Positions 6,435 through 60,814 of a stretch of DNA of 64,000 nt are shown piece after piece (the stretch's first letter is position 1; each line of letters starts with the position of its first letter). The translations under genes were made by a program, and so were the position numbers. The notes beneath the pieces were generated by a model that was not told the origin of the DNA, ran no database searches, and worked only from the letters and a program-made list of their open reading frames with translations. The stretch is from Candidatus Sediminicultor quintus (GTDB taxonomy: Bacteria > Atribacterota > Phoenicimicrobiia > Phoenicimicrobiales > Phoenicimicrobiaceae), in contig MEYH01000022.1 of the NCBI GenBank assembly GCA_001773955.1, forward strand, positions 3,606-67,605, given 5' to 3'.

Positions 6435-8102
6435 ATGGTTAATAAATTAAAGATAGCCTGTCTCCAAGTAAGTGCACGAGAGTATAGTGATAGATTTGAA
6501 AATAGAGAAAATATATTAAAAATGATTGACAAGGCAGCGGATTCACACCCTCAATTAATGGTTTTACCGGAATGTGTTTATCCGGCGTATTATATTTCTC
6601 CGCTTATAGTGAAAAATTCTTTAGAATTCCAGAAATCAACTCTGGTGCTAATTACCGAAGTGAAACAAAGGGCTAAACTGTATAAATGCTACATAGCTTT
6701 AGGGATAGTTGAAACTGACCCAATCGAAAATATTCTTTACAATTCTGCTTTACTTATCAATCCGGAAGGTCAAGAGATAAGCTGCTTCCGAAAATCTTTC
6801 CTATGGCATTTTGATTCTCACTGGTTCTGTGCCGGTGAAGAATATCCGGTAATTGAGACCGAATTCGGAAAAATAGGAATGTTTATCTGTTCTGATGGAC
6901 GACTCCCTGAAATAGTCCGTTGTTTGAGTTTACAGGGAGCGGATATTTTGCTTGACCTTACCAACTGGGTCACCTCAGGATTTGAAAAAGAAAACCTTAC
7001 CAACCCTCAGGTAGAATATATGATTCCTACACGAGCCCTGGAGAACCGGGTGTGGATAATTGCTGCCAATAAAGTGGGAATGGAGGCAAAGAGTATATTA
7101 TATTGTGGGAAAAGCGCTGTCTTTGCACCCGATGGCCAGATAGCCAAAATTGCCTCGTCTTGCCAGGAAGAGATTCTCTTTTATGAAATTTCCCTTGAGG
7201 AAGCCATAAATAAATCCATCGATAACCAAATTAATATAATTAGTGATAGAAGACCGGAATTATATTCCGAATTGGTTCAACCCACTGATACTTTACCTAT
7301 CTATTCTATTATGAAAAAAAAGACTGGCCCTAAAAATCCAAATCCGTTTACCGCAGTAGTGCAAATAGAATTTGAAGATAATTTTAAAAAATATCTCCAA
7401 AAGATAGAATTATTTATAAATAATCTATTAGAACAGGAGGCTGATATTATTATCTTTCCCGAATGTGATTTTATCTTCCCCGAAAATGGAGAGGAGATCA
7501 TCCATAAAATCAAGCAAATAACTAAGGGTAGGAAAGCGCTCTGCGCTATTACCCTAGTCGAAAAAGCAGACGAGTCCTATTATAAAACCACTTTTCTTAT
7601 AGAATCGGGTAAACTCCGGGGAAAATACCGAAAAACCCATATAGAAAGAGAAGAAAAGAGCCTTTTTTCTCCTGGAGATTTAGGCCTTCCGGTATTTAAA
7701 ACTTCTTATGGTTACGTGGGAGTAATGATAGGTTATGAAGGAATTTTCCCTGAAATAGCCCGTACCCTAACCCTTAAAGGGTCTGATATAATTATCTGGC
7801 CCAGTAAATTTTGCAATGATAGACAGATCATTATCTGCCGCAGCAGGGGGGCAGAAAACAAAATATTTGTCGCCTGTTCTAATTCTATTTCTCATCAAAG
7901 TAATGGTCATAGCTTGATCACTTCTCCTTCAGGACAAATATTAACCTCTTGTCTGGGTAAAACTGAACAAACCAGCCTTTCTTCGCTTAATCTTTTGCTT
8001 TCTCGAAATAAAAACATTGTCCCCCATACCAATACAATCTTAAACAGGAAACCAGATACTTATAAAATTTTGTTAAACAATATTCATATAGAGGAGAAAT
8101 AA
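6435..8102 (+). CDS. Tandem carbon-nitrogen hydrolase (nitrilase superfamily) protein with two CN-hydrolase domains in one polypeptide
   Basis: Two repeats of the CN-hydrolase pattern (…LMVLPECVYPAY… and …IIIFPECDF…, each with a downstream catalytic Cys region); AGGAGG RBS. Confidence 0.7.
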   Translation: MVNKLKIACLQVSAREYSDRFENRENILKMIDKAADSHPQLMVLPECVYPAYYISPLIVKNSLEFQKSTLVLITEVKQRAKLYKCYIALGIVETDPIENILYNSALLINPEGQEISCFRKSFLWHFDSHWFCAGEEYPVIETEFGKIGMFICSDGRLPEIVRCLSLQGADILLDLTNWVTSGFEKENLTNPQVEYMIPTRALENRVWIIAANKVGMEAKSILYCGKSAVFAPDGQIAKIASSCQEEILFYEISLEEAINKSIDNQINIISDRRPELYSELVQPTDTLPIYSIMKKKTGPKNPNPFTAVVQIEFEDNFKKYLQKIELFINNLLEQEADIIIFPECDFIFPENGEEIIHKIKQITKGRKALCAITLVEKADESYYKTTFLIESGKLRGKYRKTHIEREEKSLFSPGDLGLPVFKTSYGYVGVMIGYEGIFPEIARTLTLKGSDIIIWPSKFCNDRQIIICRSRGAENKIFVACSNSISHQSNGHSLITSPSGQILTSCLGKTEQTSLSSLNLLLSRNKNIVPHTNTILNRKPDTYKILLNNIHIEEK

Positions 8103-20917: not shown

Positions 20918-20960
20918 TTATTCTACAAAAAAAGCAAAAATCCTCTTTTTATATAAAAGT
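20918..20960 (+). promoter_or_regulatory. Conserved upstream module shared by both arsR-headed operons (copy 1), followed by a TTGACA -35 element
   Basis: ttattctacaaaaaaagcaaaaatcctcttttt is almost identical to 23233-23275. Confidence 0.4.
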
Positions 20961-21055
20961 TTTTGCTTTTTTATATTAATCTAATTGACAAGAGAAGATT
21001 TTTAATATACACTATATAAGTAAATATGAATATACTTATTTAAAAGGAAATAGCA

Positions 21056-46550: not shown

Positions 46551-46563
46551 ATTTTCTTTAAAA

Positions 46564-46600
46564 AGGTGGCTAAGTTCATAGGGTATGGCCACCTTTTTTC
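46564..46600 (-). terminator. Bidirectional rho-independent terminator downstream of dctQ
   Basis: Stem GGTGGC…GCCACC flanked by T-runs on both strands. Confidence 0.55.
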
Positions 46601-55129: not shown

Positions 55130-55650
55130 TTTTACAAGGTCTTCCGTTAGGAAGTCTATCTATGACAATACCTGAAGTCCCAACCCTCTTGATAAGAAAC
55201 TACTCAGCTTCTATAGGTTGTCACGGTAGGACAGCCAGTTACCTGACTGCCCCCGCACAAATCCCAGCGTGCGGAATTACCGCACTGGGCTCTTCAGAAA
55301 TACTCGCTTCCATAGCTGATCCGAATCCCTATAAGCCATCAGTCATCCTCTCTTTTCATCCCTGTAGACTTACCTTATAGTAAGTGAGCTTATAGGGTCT
55401 CCCAAGTTCTTTATATCTCTCTACAGACCTGCCATGTGCCAAGACCTCGACAGACCCTCTTTAGAATCTCGCCATATGCGATTCTTTTGTGTAGGCTTCC
55501 GTTACGGAAACGACGCCGCTGTCTTGCATTAATCTTTATTTACGAGGCTGTATAGTTCACTTTAAGGAAGTACGGCCTTCCTTATGGCCTATCTGTTTCC
55601 CGGTGTACGCTCCTGCCTGCAGCAGACAGGTCATCTAATGGTTACCCATT
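55130..55650 (+). ncRNA. Candidate large structured non-coding RNA of unknown class
   Basis: About 520-nt ORF-free core with clearly higher GC than its flanks and many local and long-range complementary segments (for example cccagcgtgcgg/ccgcactggg and ccctataagc/gcttataggg). The strand is uncertain; a + strand terminator lies at 56005-56030. Confidence 0.3.
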
Positions 55651-55949
55651 TTGATGCAACACTCCATTAGACTATTAATTAAGAATATATTAAAATAAAT
55701 TAAAGTTTATTAAATTAAATCAGGTACCGAATAAAGAAGGCTGAATAAGTCTATGAACACTCAAAAGAAAAACTTATATTCCGAATAAGACGAAAGCCTT
55801 CTTGATGATTAAAGCTAAATAGTGCTTTCGTCGCTAAAAACGACTATTAATGGAGTAAGCTCATATCATCGTTTATTCGGCCAAGGAAAGGAATATTTAT
55901 TATGAAAAAGAACTTGTTTTTTAGATGTTGCTTACATAATATTCTTAAT

Positions 55950-56297
55950 TTAAAAAATATTTAGCTGGTACATATTCTCTTTATGGTAAAACCATTTGGC
56001 CATTACCACCTTCAAAGAAGGTGGTTTTTTAAGGTTAAATAAATCGTCACTGACTTCTTGACTGACCTTACCCCATTCCTCTTTACCTACCAGTATTTCT
56101 GAGGAATTCAGTCTTGCTCTATCATACTTTTTCGTAAACTCAAGAAGGGCGTTGTCTCCTTCCTTTTTCACTTTTAATATAATTTCTCTTACCTTATCTT
56201 TAATATCCTCTGACAGGTTATCTTCAGAATACTTATGTCTGCAGACCTCTTTTATTTTTTCCTTATTTTCTCTGTTTAAAAAAATGGTCTCTATCAA
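55950..56297 (-). pseudogene. Diverged duplicate of the hisD 5' end (N-terminal fragment of about 90 aa)
   Basis: MIETIFLNRENKEKIKEVCRHKYSEDNLSEDIKDKVREIILKVKKEGDNALLEFTKKYD… is about 60% identical to HisD residues 1-90 and then diverges. The upstream 35 bp also resemble the hisD leader. Confidence 0.6.
56005..56030 (+). terminator. Rho-independent terminator on the + strand
   Basis: ACCACCTTC-AAA-GAAGGTGGT followed by TTTTTT; embedded in the hisD-like fragment. Confidence 0.5.
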
Positions 56298-56447: not shown

Positions 56448-59400
56448 ATGATGGTTACCAGAAAAAATTTCGGGCGTACCTGGTGGGGAAATGCCTGGAT
56501 AGAAGCAATGGCACGAATTGATCACGATACCAACCGCTTGCCCAGAGGCAGAAGTTATGCCAACGGTGGTAGAGTACAAGAGATTCAGATTTGTAACGGT
56601 ATTGTGGAAGCAAAAGTAAAAGGTAGGCAACGAAAACCTTATCAAGTAACAATTTACTTGCAAAAATTTACCCCGGAACAACTTTCGAAAATACAATCCT
56701 GTATCGCCGAAGATCCAGCCTTGGCCTCCGAATTGGCTTTGGGAAAACTACCGGAAGAGATGCTGAATCGGCTTGCTCAGGAAAATATCTCTCTTTTACC
56801 GACTACCTGGCAAGAGCTTAACGCAAACTGCTCCTGTCCCGACTGGGCCAACCCCTGCAAGCACCTCGCTGCAGTCTACTACCTTATTGCCAATGAAGTG
56901 GATAAAAATCCCTTTATTTTGTTTCACCTACGAGGTGTGGAAACCAACACACTAATGCAGGCCGCCGGTTTTGTAGAACCTGTCACGGCTGCTGAAAACG
57001 AAGAAACTTTTATCCCTTATATACAGATAAAAGTTCCCATCAAAGACAATAAAAAGGATAATAAAGTCGAACCCGAGTTTTCTTCAATTTTAAGTTCCCT
57101 TTCTCAAGAAAAGGATAGTGCTGCCATTTTTGCCCTGCTGGAAGAATCTCCTTTGTTTTACCCCGAGGCTAATTTTAAACAGATCCTCTTTAAAGCTTAT
57201 CATAATATAACAAACCATATCAAACAATTACAGCTACTGGAAGAGTTCCCCAGTTGGTCAAAGTCAAATATTTGCCTGCTCGATCCGGGAATTAAGGTCT
57301 ACCACCCCTTGTCCGAAACATCTTTTTTTATTTTTCTTCCCAAAAAAATCTCGGAAGGTTTGGAAGGTCCATCAAAAATAATTACCGTTCCCGAAGACCT
57401 GGGCGGGAAGCTAATTCTAAAAAAGAAAAAGGGAATTCTATTGCCTGCAGCAACCTTAATTGATTACTTTATAAGACTACCACTGCAGCTTTCTTCTGAA
57501 GAGAGCTCCCCTGAGGTAAGATTAATCAGCATCGCGACCACTATAGCCTTAGCCCTGGCCAGGGAATCAGCATTTGTGCCACAGATAAGGAATGACCAAA
57601 AAGGTAACTTTTTTGTGCGTTATATGCCCCTTAACCAGCTGAAAGTCACTGAAAAAGCCCTGGACTTTCTGGCCGGCCTCATTCCGGTAACCTTTCTTTA
57701 TCGAAAAGAAGAAAAATCTCTTCTTATAAGGCGAGATGCCGCCAGGTCTCTTTTATCACTTATTCTGACCTATATTGTGCATCGCTTTGCCGGGATCAAA
57801 GAAAGTAATAAGCTTTGTAACACCTTTTTTAATGGGGACTATTACCCGGTTCAGGACTTTACCGAAAGGCAGACCGCCAGGGTAATTACCAACTGGCTAA
57901 GCATATTAAACTTAAGTGGGAATGAAATTTCCCCGGCAATTAGGATAGAAATACCTCAGGGTAAAAAAACTCTTTTTCAGTTACAGGTGGAGGTAGAAAA
58001 CAAAAAAGATCCCCTCTCCCCACTTCTCCCTTTAGCGGATGTATTTACGACAAAAAAAACTATTTTCTCTCATCCCATTGAAATGGTGCGCTTTACCCTA
58101 GCCCACCAAATTTCTACAGCCTCTACTTATTTCCCGCCTCTAAAAACGGTTCTCAGCAGTAAAGGAAAGAAGTCACCCCTTATCGACCCTCTGGAAGTGG
58201 CCAGATTTATCCAAAATGGCCAACATATCTTTAATATGCTTGGCATACGCGTGATTGTGCCCAAAGAATTAAAAATACTTAGCTCACCTCAGCTGTCTCT
58301 GGCAGCTAAGCTTAAAGCCAGCGAGAAGCAAAACATTTCTTATTTTAACCTGGAAGAAATGTTAACCTTCTCCTGGGAAGTGGCTCTGGGTGATCTTAAA
58401 CTAACGCGAAAAGAATTTCTTCAGCTGGTCAAATCGGCAGCAGGGGTAGTAAAATTCAAAGAGCACTATCTGTTACTTCAGCCTGAAGAAGTAGCGCAAA
58501 TAGTTAAAAAGCTAAACCAACCCTTGCCTAAACTATCTTCTGCAGAAATAATGCAAGCATCACTAACCGGACAAACCGCCAATATTTTTTTTCATTCTGA
58601 TGATAAACTCCGCAAAATGATAGATGAGCTTACCAAGTTCAAAGTGGTCAAACTCCCAAAAAGCCTAAAAGCAGTGCTTCGACCCTACCAGAAGCGAGGT
58701 TTTCAGTGGCTCTACTCTAACGCTGACAAAGGGCTCGGTTCCTGCCTGGCCGATGATATGGGATTGGGTAAAACCATCCAGGCGATTACCCTTATTTTAA
58801 AACTGAAAGAAGAGAAAAAACTGGACCATCCTGCACTGGTAATTTGCCCGACTACCCTGGTCGGTAACTGGCTGAAGGAATGCAACAAATTTGCCCCATC
58901 CTTAAAAGCATTGACATATCACGGACCAGAACGTCAGCTTATTACCTCTCTACCTGTGCGTGTACGCACCTGTCTGCGTGCGTACACGCACAGGCAGGCG
59001 CAGACAGGTCACGCCGATTTAGTCATTACCACATATGGGCTATTGCGCCGTGAAGTTGAAAAATTTAAAAAAAGAAACTGGGATCTTATTATTATTGATG
59101 AAGCTCAAAATATAAAAAATGCAGATAGTAAGCAGACCAAAGCGGTTAAAGCATTAAAAGCCAGGGGCACTATCGCCTTAAGCGGAACGCCGGTAGAAAA
59201 TCGCCTGAGTGAGCTCTGGAGTATTTTTGATTATTTAATCCCAGACTACCTGGGAACCCGGCAGAATTTTATGCGTCGTTTTGCTATGCCCATCGAAAAG
59301 TACCGTGACCAGAGAAAAATCGCCTTATTACAAAAAGCCACCGCTCCTTTTATTATGCGCCGCATGAAGACAGATCGTTCCATCATACAGGATTTACCGG

Positions 59401-60128
59401 ATAAGATAGTAAAAAATGAATACTGTTACCTGAGCAAAGAACAAACTGCTATCTACCAGCGTGTTGTAGATACCAATATACAGGAAATTTCCAATAGTGA
59501 AGGAATCGCGCGCCGGGGACTTGTTTTCAAGTTAATGACCTCTCTAAAACAGATCTGTAACCACCCGGTTCACTATACCAAAAAAGGAACTGTGGTCAAG
59601 GAACATTCGGGTAAAGCAGAGATGACCATTTCTCTACTGAAAAAGATTATATCCGCCAGGGAAAAAGTGCTCTTGTTCACCCAATACAAAGTGATGGGGA
59701 ATCTACTGGTACAACTAATCCAGACAGAACTTCAGATAGTGCCTCTCTTTTTTCACGGCAGCCTCACCCGGAAAAAACGAGAAATGATGATTGAGGATTT
59801 CCAGAACGGCAATTGCTCCCCAATTATGATTATCTCACTGAAAGCAGGAGGCACCGGCCTTAACCTGACCGCCGCAACCAACGTCATCCACTACGACCTT
59901 TGGTGGAACCCTGCCGTAGAAGCACAGGCAACCGACCGTACTCACCGTATCGGCCAAAGCAGGAAGGTATTTGTACACCGGCTTATTACTATCGGTACAT
60001 TTGAAGAAAAAATTGATGAAATGATCAGCGCCAAAAAAGAGTTGGCTGAGTTAACTGTTTCTACCGGTGAAAAATGGCTCAGCGAACTCTCCAACCAGGA
60101 ACTGAAAGAAATATTTAAGCTAAGCTAA
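56448..60128 (+). CDS. SWIM zinc-finger / SNF2-family DNA-dependent ATPase (helicase)
   Basis: N-terminal SWIM CSCPDWANPCKHLAAV; SNF2_N LADDMGLGKTIQAI and DEAQNIKN; helicase-C motif DLWWNPAVEAQATDRTHRIGQ. Confidence 0.9.
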   Translation: MMVTRKNFGRTWWGNAWIEAMARIDHDTNRLPRGRSYANGGRVQEIQICNGIVEAKVKGRQRKPYQVTIYLQKFTPEQLSKIQSCIAEDPALASELALGKLPEEMLNRLAQENISLLPTTWQELNANCSCPDWANPCKHLAAVYYLIANEVDKNPFILFHLRGVETNTLMQAAGFVEPVTAAENEETFIPYIQIKVPIKDNKKDNKVEPEFSSILSSLSQEKDSAAIFALLEESPLFYPEANFKQILFKAYHNITNHIKQLQLLEEFPSWSKSNICLLDPGIKVYHPLSETSFFIFLPKKISEGLEGPSKIITVPEDLGGKLILKKKKGILLPAATLIDYFIRLPLQLSSEESSPEVRLISIATTIALALARESAFVPQIRNDQKGNFFVRYMPLNQLKVTEKALDFLAGLIPVTFLYRKEEKSLLIRRDAARSLLSLILTYIVHRFAGIKESNKLCNTFFNGDYYPVQDFTERQTARVITNWLSILNLSGNEISPAIRIEIPQGKKTLFQLQVEVENKKDPLSPLLPLADVFTTKKTIFSHPIEMVRFTLAHQISTASTYFPPLKTVLSSKGKKSPLIDPLEVARFIQNGQHIFNMLGIRVIVPKELKILSSPQLSLAAKLKASEKQNISYFNLEEMLTFSWEVALGDLKLTRKEFLQLVKSAAGVVKFKEHYLLLQPEEVAQIVKKLNQPLPKLSSAEIMQASLTGQTANIFFHSDDKLRKMIDELTKFKVVKLPKSLKAVLRPYQKRGFQWLYSNADKGLGSCLADDMGLGKTIQAITLILKLKEEKKLDHPALVICPTTLVGNWLKECNKFAPSLKALTYHGPERQLITSLPVRVRTCLRAYTHRQAQTGHADLVITTYGLLRREVEKFKKRNWDLIIIDEAQNIKNADSKQTKAVKALKARGTIALSGTPVENRLSELWSIFDYLIPDYLGTRQNFMRRFAMPIEKYRDQRKIALLQKATAPFIMRRMKTDRSIIQDLPDKIVKNEYCYLSKEQTAIYQRVVDTNIQEISNSEGIARRGLVFKLMTSLKQICNHPVHYTKKGTVVKEHSGKAEMTISLLKKIISAREKVLLFTQYKVMGNLLVQLIQTELQIVPLFFHGSLTRKKREMMIEDFQNGNCSPIMIISLKAGGTGLNLTAATNVIHYDLWWNPAVEAQATDRTHRIGQSRKVFVHRLITIGTFEEKIDEMISAKKELAELTVSTGEKWLSELSNQELKEIFKLS
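58953..58995. repeat. GC-rich perfect 17-bp-stem palindrome inside the SNF2 helicase ORF
   Basis: CCTGTGCGTGTACGCAC-ctgtctgcg-GTGCGTACACGCACAGG, part of a roughly 66-nt block that is about 65% GC and encodes LPVRVRTCLRAYTHRQAQTGHA in frame. Confidence 0.5.
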
Positions 60129-60224
60129 TTCTTCGGGATACCTTTCTCTTGAAATTTGCATGTGGAAGATGTATAATCATTGTAGATACATTTTATAGTT
60201 CATTTTTTGAAAGGAAGGTGCTAT

Positions 60225-60467
60225 ATGCAAACTAAGATTAAAAAATGGGGTAACAGTCTGGCATTACGAATTCCCAAATTATTAGCATTAGATGTAAACC
60301 TAAAGCTAAATGAATTGGTTGATTTATCTATTGATAAGGATAGTATTATTATTACGCCAATCGGCGAAAAAGAATATTCGCTCGAAAAACTTTTAAAAGG
60401 CATTACTAAAAACAATCTTCACGGAGAATTTAACACCGGGGCACCGGTTGGAAAAGAAAACTGGTGA
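60225..60467 (+). CDS. mazE: MazE/AbrB-type antitoxin
   Basis: MQTKIKKWGNSLALRIPK SpoVT/AbrB swapped-hairpin motif; RBS GGAAGG; overlaps mazF by 4 nt. Confidence 0.8.
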   Translation: MQTKIKKWGNSLALRIPKLLALDVNLKLNELVDLSIDKDSIIITPIGEKEYSLEKLLKGITKNNLHGEFNTGAPVGKENW

Positions 60468-60814
60468 TGGCGGGCAATTTTATTCCGCATAGAGGTGATG
60501 TGGTTTGGATAGATATGCAGCCTCAAGCCGGCCATGAACAATCCGGAAGACGTCCGGCAATCGTTCTGTCGCCAAAATCTTATAATGGTAAAGTTGGCCT
60601 GGCCTTATTGTGTCCGATAACCAACCAAATAAAAGGATATCCTTTTGAAGTTATTATTCCATCCAGATTAAGGGTAGTAGGGGTTGTTTTATCAGATCAG
60701 GTAAAAAGCCTTGATTGGAAAATTAGAAATGCCGAATTCTGTGATAAAGTACCTGAGACTGTGGTTTTGGAAATATTTAAAAAACTTGAGACACTGCTAA
60801 ATTTTGATAGGTAG
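60464..60814 (+). CDS. mazF: MazF/PemK family endoribonuclease toxin
   Basis: 116-aa PemK-like protein (GDVVWIDMQPQAGHEQSGRRPAIVLSP). Confidence 0.85.
   Translation: MMAGNFIPHRGDVVWIDMQPQAGHEQSGRRPAIVLSPKSYNGKVGLALLCPITNQIKGYPFEVIIPSRLRVVGVVLSDQVKSLDWKIRNAEFCDKVPETVVLEIFKKLETLLNFDR

Follow-up and report, generated by a model that had tools for sequence, protein, structure and literature searches.

Nested 30-nt hairpin-forming units inside an SNF2-family helicase gene of an Atribacterota genome and their near-identical relatives in other bacterial phyla

Hairpin-guided single-strand transposition that leaves no target duplication has been established for the IS200/IS605 insertion sequences and for the repetitive extragenic palindromic (REP) sequences with their REP-associated tyrosine transposases (RAYTs) (PMC6006769), and REPs that lie in frame inside helicase and repair genes have been documented (PMC3733652; PMC6006769). 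The locus described here therefore represents a phenomenon of a known kind. It is a palindromic in-frame insertion of 60 nt in the gene for an SNF2-family helicase, located in a 64,000-nt stretch of contig MEYH01000022.1 from the Atribacterota member “Candidatus Sediminicultor quintus” (the whole stretch is referred to below as the window). Comparison of alleles shows the palindrome to be, at the sequence level, a nested dimer of a dispersed 30-nt unit, one copy of which lies inverted inside the other. It is quite probable that this unit is a non-coding, hairpin-forming mobile element whose movement would depend on an enzyme of the HUH/Y1 type, and the best reading of the element is that of a REP-like non-autonomous hairpin transposon.

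The unit resembles REPs and REP doublets forming hairpins (REPINs) in being an imperfect palindrome in the 20- to 40-nt range with a bulge and an unpaired 5′ tag, in lying mostly outside genes, and in occurring both as singletons and as inverted dimers. It differs in its tag, which is [C/T]CTG rather than the GT[AG]G or CGTC of REPs (no CCTG or CAGG family is found among the REP families of PMC3733652), and in the geometry of its dimers, which are nested rather than spaced; further, neither the window nor the ∼1 Mb of loci around the units showed a flanking RAYT gene (a REPtron). REP families are lineage specific and vertically inherited, with tens to hundreds of copies per genome, whereas the 30-nt unit is near-identical over about 18 phyla and occupies a single site in the window. 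With the IS200/IS605 elements and the palindrome-associated transposable elements (PATEs), the unit shares the lack of target duplication, an apparently precise loss, an imperfect subterminal hairpin, and a wide horizontal distribution. However, IS200/IS605 elements have two different hairpin ends instead of one 30-nt hairpin and a defined target of 4 to 5 nt (e.g., TTAC) instead of a weak preference for YG in the flank, and neither tnpA nor tnpB was found near the 30-nt units. A bias in orientation toward the lagging-strand template is a further mark of single-strand transposition of this type. Rickettsia palindromic elements are also selfish palindromic DNA that sits in frame in coding genes and is tolerated in surface loops, but they are 100 to 150 bp long and restricted to Rickettsia, in contrast to a 30-nt unit that is present in Atribacterota and many other phyla. 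Bacterial MITEs (miniature inverted-repeat transposable elements), such as Correia/NEMIS and ERIC, are similarly non-autonomous, have terminal inverted repeats, and can be cotranscribed or translated; these are elements of 100 to 400 bp with target-site duplications, whereas the unit shows no duplication at any resolved junction. The GC clusters of yeast mitochondria, which are mobile GC-rich palindromes of 30 to 50 bp in an AT-rich genome, sometimes in frame (var1) and a source of length polymorphism, are organellar and eukaryotic, have other sequences, and are reported to generate target duplications; no relation by descent to the unit is implied.

The host gene and the components of the insertion are listed below with their coordinates in the window (a caret in a sequence marks the point of insertion).

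56448-60128, + strand: host gene for a SWIM-zinc-finger/DUF3670/SNF2-family helicase of 1226 aa (open reading frame, translation, and Pfam)
58949-59008, + strand: whole in-frame insertion, 60 nt (empty site ACCGC^TCACGCC in L138, L003, and L143 compared with filled alleles)
58949-58968, + strand: left part of the outer unit, TCTACCTGTGCGTGTACGCA, comprising the 5′ tag TCTA, the left arm, the loop GTAC, and the start of the right arm (comparison with L136)
58969-58998, − strand: inner unit, inverted; the + strand reads CCTGTCTGCGTGCGTACACGCACAGGCAGG, the reverse complement of the canonical CCTGCCTGTGCGTGTACGCACGCAGACAGG (30 nt absent from L136)
58999-59008, + strand: right part of the outer unit, CGCAGACAGG (comparison with L136)
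58953-58994, no strand assigned: 17-bp palindrome, in which the left arm of the outer unit pairs with the inner (inverted) unit's right half (inverted-repeat search and single-stranded DNA fold)
58968-59009, no strand assigned: second inverted repeat of 11 bp, in which the left half of the inner unit pairs with the right arm of the outer unit (inverted-repeat search)

The arms of the 17-bp inverted repeat, CCTGTGCGTGTACGCAC (58953-58969) and GTGCGTACACGCACAGG (58978-58994), are fully complementary and enclose a loop of 8 nt, CTGTCTGC; no longer perfect inverted repeat exists within the 64-kb window. The arm has no further match in the window at ≤3 mismatches, and no match was obtained in 100 shuffles. 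The palindrome, which the first-pass annotation of this DNA had placed correctly while giving its loop as 9 nt, is thus confirmed as real and far beyond chance. When folded as single-stranded DNA, the 70-nt stretch that includes it reaches −24.6 kcal/mol (z = −5.5). The overlapping second inverted repeat noticed in the same annotation is present as well, with arms (58968-58978 and 58999-59009) of 11 bp and not 12 bp. The insert is in frame between two helicase segments, as had been claimed, and adds 60 nt and 20 residues (LPVRVRTCLRAYTHRQAQTG) instead of the proposed 22, the trailing “HA” being native; the codon that precedes the added peptide is changed from Ala (GCT) to Ser (TCT). The register of the insertion is ambiguous by ±1 nt, so that 58950-59009 is an equally valid placement. 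The G+C content is 63% in the insert, 42.6% in the rest of the gene (which had been put at about 35%), and 36.2% in the window.

The composite structure of the insert is evident from the locus L136, the flanks of which are 99% identical to those in the window. It carries at the same site a single 30-nt unit, TCTACCTGTGCGTGTACGCA joined to CGCAGACAGG (TCT CTACCTGTGCGTGTACGCACGCAGACAGGT), and the window allele equals the L136 allele plus exactly 30 bases (58969-58998). These additional bases match both the family profile (E = 6e-12) and the family pattern in the inverted orientation, and it is the setting of an inverted inner unit against the outer unit that gives rise to the perfect 17-bp palindrome. 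Since the inner tag is the canonical CCTG and the outer one is TCTA, the inner unit was not copied from the outer. Neither the insertion of the first unit nor that of the nested one duplicated any target bases. The earlier suggestion of a miniature palindromic insertion can accordingly be refined to that of a nested dimer. Apart from a 19-nt relative at 55612 (see below), no further copies of the unit were found in the window. An origin of the palindrome in a single local event, through slippage during replication or snap-back synthesis, or else as a remnant of a group II intron, is scarcely credible as an alternative, given that the same 30-mer is found at >130 unrelated loci and that L136 provides a single-unit intermediate. 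The intron version draws on the presence of GTGCG, the group II 5′ consensus, in the insert and on the fact that the best match in the window is a hairpin in domain I of an intron located upstream; this likeness, however, consists of a 19-nt stretch with the family termini and not of intron ends, and the idea of an intron remnant was rejected as the unit is dispersed independently of introns.

Alleles of the helicase gene were read from members of the three closest 90%-identity clusters. In ∼55 of 60 aligned homologues, the insert is missing and the flanking residues are contiguous (...LITA^HADL...), in agreement with the earlier expectation of a lineage-specific insertion. The protein alleles at this position (site 1) are empty, +10 aa (LPVRTCTQTG, LPVRACTQTG, or LPVRVRTQTG), +19 aa, and +20 aa, the last in two unrelated versions, and the peptides encoded by different alleles, LPVRVRTCLRAYTHRQAQTG, LPVRACTQTGVGTGRRTQTG, and LPVRVPVCRLPVRACTQTG, are wholly unlike each other. 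In DNA, the empty site reads ATTACC GCT^CAC GCC (L138, L003, and L143), and the alleles measure 0, 30, 57, and 60 nt, all in frame; the proposed recombination hotspot holds in the sense of such a hypervariable site only. In a neighbor-joining tree built from 2 kb of gene sequence flanking the insert, both main clades contain filled alleles interspersed with empty ones, a pattern that requires either repeated seamless loss or repeated gain at one nucleotide. An exact gain of 30 nt with no duplication is seen between the empty alleles L138, L003, and L143 and the single-unit alleles L136, L002, and L139, between L136 and the window, and, at another position within the gene (site 2), between L137 and L140.

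57381-57390, + strand: second target site in the host gene, ATTACCGT^TC, with the junction at 57388/57389, empty in the window (occupied in relatives)

The context of this second site, ...ATTACCGT^TCCCG, was recovered in a profile search of Atribacteria loci. Its alleles include a 30-nt unit in L137, nested 60-nt dimers in L140 to L142 and in L146, L147, and L149, and a 57-nt mosaic in L001; here, too, every allele keeps the frame. The sequence ATTACCGY^TC is common to both SNF2 sites, and the window contains just two exact copies of it. A metagenome scan for this motif followed by the start of the unit returned only the two SNF2 sites, so that it is not a target of general use. A rare loop base, a T where 112 of 118 units have a C, is also shared by the units resident at the two sites. 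The nested inner units, by contrast with these residents, are canonical, and we infer that they came from elsewhere.

The consensus of the unit is YCTG-CCTGTGCGTG-NNC-GCACGCAGACAGG, with a variable loop of 3 to 4 nt followed by (C)GCACGCAGACAGG. As single-stranded DNA, it folds into an unpaired 5′ tail of 4 to 5 nt and an imperfect hairpin in which a GA bulge separates a 4-bp stem from a 6-bp stem closed by a tetraloop (−9.5 kcal/mol; z = −2.5). A scan of 596 Gb, comprising one genome per GTDB species, with the pattern CCTGTGCGTNNNNGCACNCAGACAGG (21 specified bases) returned at least 118 stretches in metagenome-assembled genomes (MAGs) of about 18 phyla, where ∼0.3 would be expected by chance. 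Judging by the names in the sequence records, from which the host groups were taken, the hosts among the matches listed include Atribacterota (L006), Desulfobacterota, Planctomycetota (Brocadia, Kuenenia, and Phycisphaerae), Latescibacterota, Bipolaricaulota, WOR-3, Patescibacteria, Spirochaetota, Actinomycetota, Nitrospirota, Verrucomicrobiota, Lentisphaerota, Kiritimatiellota, Armatimonadota, Thermotogota, Bacteroidota, Binatota, and several proteobacterial classes; the unit was also found in 14 viral contigs (IMG/VR). The flanks of the units in different hosts are unrelated. Conservation begins sharply at the 5′ (G)[C/T]CTG, which the pattern did not demand (C in 98%, T in 95%, and G in 95% of the 118 units), and stops at ...CAGG, and the weak preference upstream is for YG, seen in about 73% of the units. 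The termini form an 8-nt imperfect inverted repeat, CCTGYCTG/CAGRCAGG. Shorter relatives of 18 to 28 nt with the termini CCTGYCTG...CAGRCAGG are found in the same loci (none in shuffles), and relatives sharing this terminal repeat span 18 to 47 nt altogether. In Rfam, nothing reached the gathering score, and the only subthreshold matches, obtained with relaxed E-values and to generic miRNA-like hairpins, were judged to be due to chance. Literature searches by sequence words and by topic returned only primers and unrelated papers and no description of the 30-nt unit, which appears to constitute a previously unnoticed cross-phylum family. The possibility of a CRISPR repeat was considered and rejected, as there are no arrays and usually a single match per 8-kb locus.

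The units are mostly extragenic: 19% of them fall into open frames of at least 200 codons, compared with 70% of control positions. An enrichment at host hairpin tips is also seen, flanking inverted repeats of at least 6 bp being present at 9% of the units versus 0.7% of the controls, and 10 to 17 of 124 units are nested in an inverted member of the family. The same nest point, GCA^CGCAG, was found in the window, at the second SNF2 site of L140, and in L040 and L062, a Spirochaetaceae MAG and a Thermodesulfobacteriota MAG, respectively, each with two levels of nesting. In L107, L070, L064, and L112 (Opitutales and related MAGs), the unit resides inside the loop of another repeated hairpin, GGCGGACAG...GAATGTCCGCC, which suggests a second, host-specific palindromic repeat family acting as a target.

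Intragenic copies that are in frame were detected in genes for a UvrD helicase (L013), an HsdS subunit (L060), DDE transposases (L092 and L035), and a BrxC-like protein (L130). In L013 (MAG “bacterium E14_metabat.bin.131”), the UvrD/PcrA-type helicase gene carries at ∼6600-6800 a unit and a second family-like stretch, in frame between helicase motifs, a case that parallels that of SNF2. All six reading frames are used in host genes, which indicates a constraint on the DNA and not on the peptide. No stop codon appears in any of the six frames of the consensus or of 101 of the 124 units; since 30% of composition-matched shuffles of the consensus lack stops as well, this property alone is not evidence of selection. 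Together with the length of 30 nt, the freedom of the consensus from stops keeps the SNF2 gene open after insertion.

These data show a history of two steps. A first unit entered the SNF2 gene between ...ACCGC and TCACGCC, adding exactly 30 nt without target-site duplication, and a canonical second unit later entered the resident one, in the inverted orientation and at GCA^CGCAG, adding exactly 30 nt again. The units may move as single-stranded hairpins that are processed in trans by an HUH/Y1-type (RAYT- or IS200/IS605-like) enzyme, which would cut at a fixed distance from the hairpin, cause no duplication on insertion, and allow for precise excision. Such mobilization would explain the interleaving of empty and filled alleles, the preference for hairpin tips, and the recurrent point of self-nesting. 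The gain of 30 nt without duplication, the seamless empty sites, and the fixed position of self-insertion make single-strand, hairpin-guided HUH/Y1 transposition the most likely mechanism, by analogy with the established systems. The palindrome in the window, where the host gene is intact, is selfish DNA caught between the first and second steps of insertion.

Several observations weigh against HUH/Y1 transposition of a widely dispersed element. Searches with IS200/IS608 proteins (phmmer) and an HUH-motif prefilter revealed no Y1/HUH transposase in the window or in the ∼1 Mb of loci that flank the units, and no transposase of any kind was associated with the units. When 2,074 flanking open reading frames (ORFs) were compared all against all by BLASTP, no family was common to more than 6 of the ∼130 loci. 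The GTAG tag read by RAYT-type enzymes is absent from the unit, the window holds only one occupied site and a doubtful 19-mer, and near-identity over about 18 phyla is unlike vertically inherited REP/RAYT systems. For one step, the flanking motif and the rare loop base shared by the two SNF2 sites lead us to infer homology-assisted copying between them, i.e., for that step only, a process other than transposition. Finally, all genome matches are MAGs, and scans of the PLSDB plasmids and GenBank phages for the unit gave no match.

The restriction to MAGs fits an environmental host range and is also the main residual reason for caution. Together with the lack of matches in the isolate-derived plasmid and phage collections, it is what could be cited in favor of an artefact of assembly, a chimera, or an adapter. 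Such an origin, which the first-pass annotation had raised, is rejected as extremely improbable. The same 60-nt allele is present in several independent assemblies (P0001, P0124, and P0127), the site holds related alleles with point mutations of their own in data from independent samples and pipelines, and the matches include long-read chromosome-level MAGs (OZ24xxxx). Moreover, the extragenic bias, the preference for hairpin tips, the fixed nest point, and the kept frames are biological regularities, and an adapter would occupy the ends of fragments instead of interrupting contiguous halves of a gene.

As regards the missing enzyme, RAYT genes are single-copy. The protein families that do recur near the units are those of housekeeping or IS1634 genes, and the ORFs between paired units encode IMPase or TolB or are spurious; the option that the unit is the end of a larger mobile element was discarded, as no protein family recurs across the flanks. 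The failure to find a Y1 gene near the units or in the window would be expected if the same family were moved by something other than an HUH/Y1 enzyme, namely, a DDE transposase acting on the 8-nt termini CCTGYCTG/CAGRCAGG, a recombinase for which the unit is a site, a reverse transcriptase, or copying by homology or template switching. This alternative is unlikely on the whole. The 8-nt imperfect terminal inverted repeat common to the 18- to 47-nt relatives would suit a DDE enzyme, but three exact junction comparisons without target-site duplication argue against a DDE-type MITE. An ORF-less group II intron that carries a related 19-mer 3.3 kb upstream can also be counted in favor of this alternative. 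Neither a reverse transcriptase nor a recombinase recurs near the units. Template switching could account for the 10 nt of flank and the rare loop base that the second SNF2 site shares with the first, and it fails for identical units in unrelated flanks across phyla, as well as for the difference between an inner unit and the unit that hosts it.

It is conceivable, at somewhat less than even chance, that the units constitute an undescribed class of ultra-small (30-nt), frame-neutral, hairpin-forming mobile DNA, near-invariant over about 18 phyla and some viruses, that has hairpins as its preferred targets, among them its own, which it enters at a fixed position, and is mobilized in trans by a horizontally spreading or universally conserved enzyme. 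It would thereby be set apart from the lineage-bound REP/RAYT systems. A 30-nt sequence that is nearly unchanged over so many phyla would, if this is true, imply trans-acting machinery of very conserved specificity that is shared or exchanged among them; naming that machinery would add a new player in single-strand DNA transposition, and the fixed self-nesting point offers a directly testable cleavage site. A cross-phylum unit would also challenge the view of REP-like repeats as strictly vertical residents. Through the unit, real proteins (SNF2, UvrD, HsdS, and transposases) become polymorphic in length with the frame kept; it is a natural source of loop insertions and, in protein databases derived from MAGs, also one of annotation and alignment artefacts. 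Under the new-class reading, it could supply the proteins of uncultured bacteria in general with in-frame loop insertions.

The host protein matches the SNF2-rel_dom, DUF3670, and Helicase_C domains of Pfam and is 100% identical to OGD37834.1 and OGD16930.1 from “Candidatus Atribacteria” RBG MAGs. In RecA-like lobe 1, the insert follows the YHG strand and precedes the VITTYG strand. Residues 720 to 1226 were modeled with AlphaFold2 (based on a 71-sequence alignment; mean pLDDT, 84.8), and the 20 extra residues are predicted to be an unstructured coil with pLDDT of <50. As they would form a disordered surface loop of ATPase lobe 1, the helicase probably remains functional, and it is concluded that the insert is tolerated and that the kept frame reflects purifying selection on the helicase.

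A different interpretation of the kept frame is that the insertion has been domesticated, i.e., that either the hairpin has a role as an mRNA element or the helicase is modulated by the loop, and that the insertion is maintained by selection. In favor of this, one could refer to the in-frame state of all six allele lengths at site 1 and all three at site 2, to the occupation of one gene at two sites, and to the reported enrichment of REPs in helicase and repair genes (PMC3733652), to which the UvrD gene with units in L013 might be added. However, the peptides differ wholly between alleles and between host genes, with all six frames in use, most close orthologues lack the insert, the inserted residues are predicted to be disordered, and purifying selection on the host gene alone predicts a kept frame. 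A selected function is accordingly improbable.

The palindromic 19-nt relative mentioned above lies within an intergenic, ORF-less group II intron (55220-55665, − strand), which matches RF02005 (D1-D4; 42.4 bits, E = 2.7e-10) and RF00029 (D5-D6; 35.5 bits), in both cases just below the gathering score.

55612-55630, + strand: 19-nt relative with the family termini, CCTGCCTGCAGCAGACAGG, inside intron domain I (best match to the unit in the window)

It was the best match in the window for all four forms of the query, a result that is no more than suggestive, with equal or better matches in 0 to 7 of 60 shuffles; the value of 7 of 60 was obtained with the window's own 60-nt insert as the query. 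An identical 19-mer is present in L149. Its assignment to the element family is tentative.

On the 5′ side of the SNF2 gene, a 115-aa ORF (55953-56297, − strand) represents only an N-terminal fragment of histidinol dehydrogenase. In L140 and L142, the whole his operon (hisZ, hisG, hisD, and more) is found directly upstream of the SNF2 gene, so that the window genome must carry a deletion or rearrangement at this point, beside the intron. A MazE antitoxin/MazF (PemK) toxin gene pair directly 3′ of the SNF2 gene (60207-60814, + strand) is kept in relatives. In the region 5078-10178 of L001, a sister contig from Atribacteria, the genes next in line after the SNF2 gene are one for an ATPase (OLD-family/AAA_15) and one for restriction-modification of type IIL (MmeI-like), which hints that the SNF2 gene adjoins a defense island there. 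Two other perfect hairpins in the window, one at 20928-20972 with 13-bp AT-rich arms and a 19-nt loop and the other at 46560-46598 with the 11-bp arms AAAAAGGTGGC/GCCACCTTTTT, look like bidirectional terminators.

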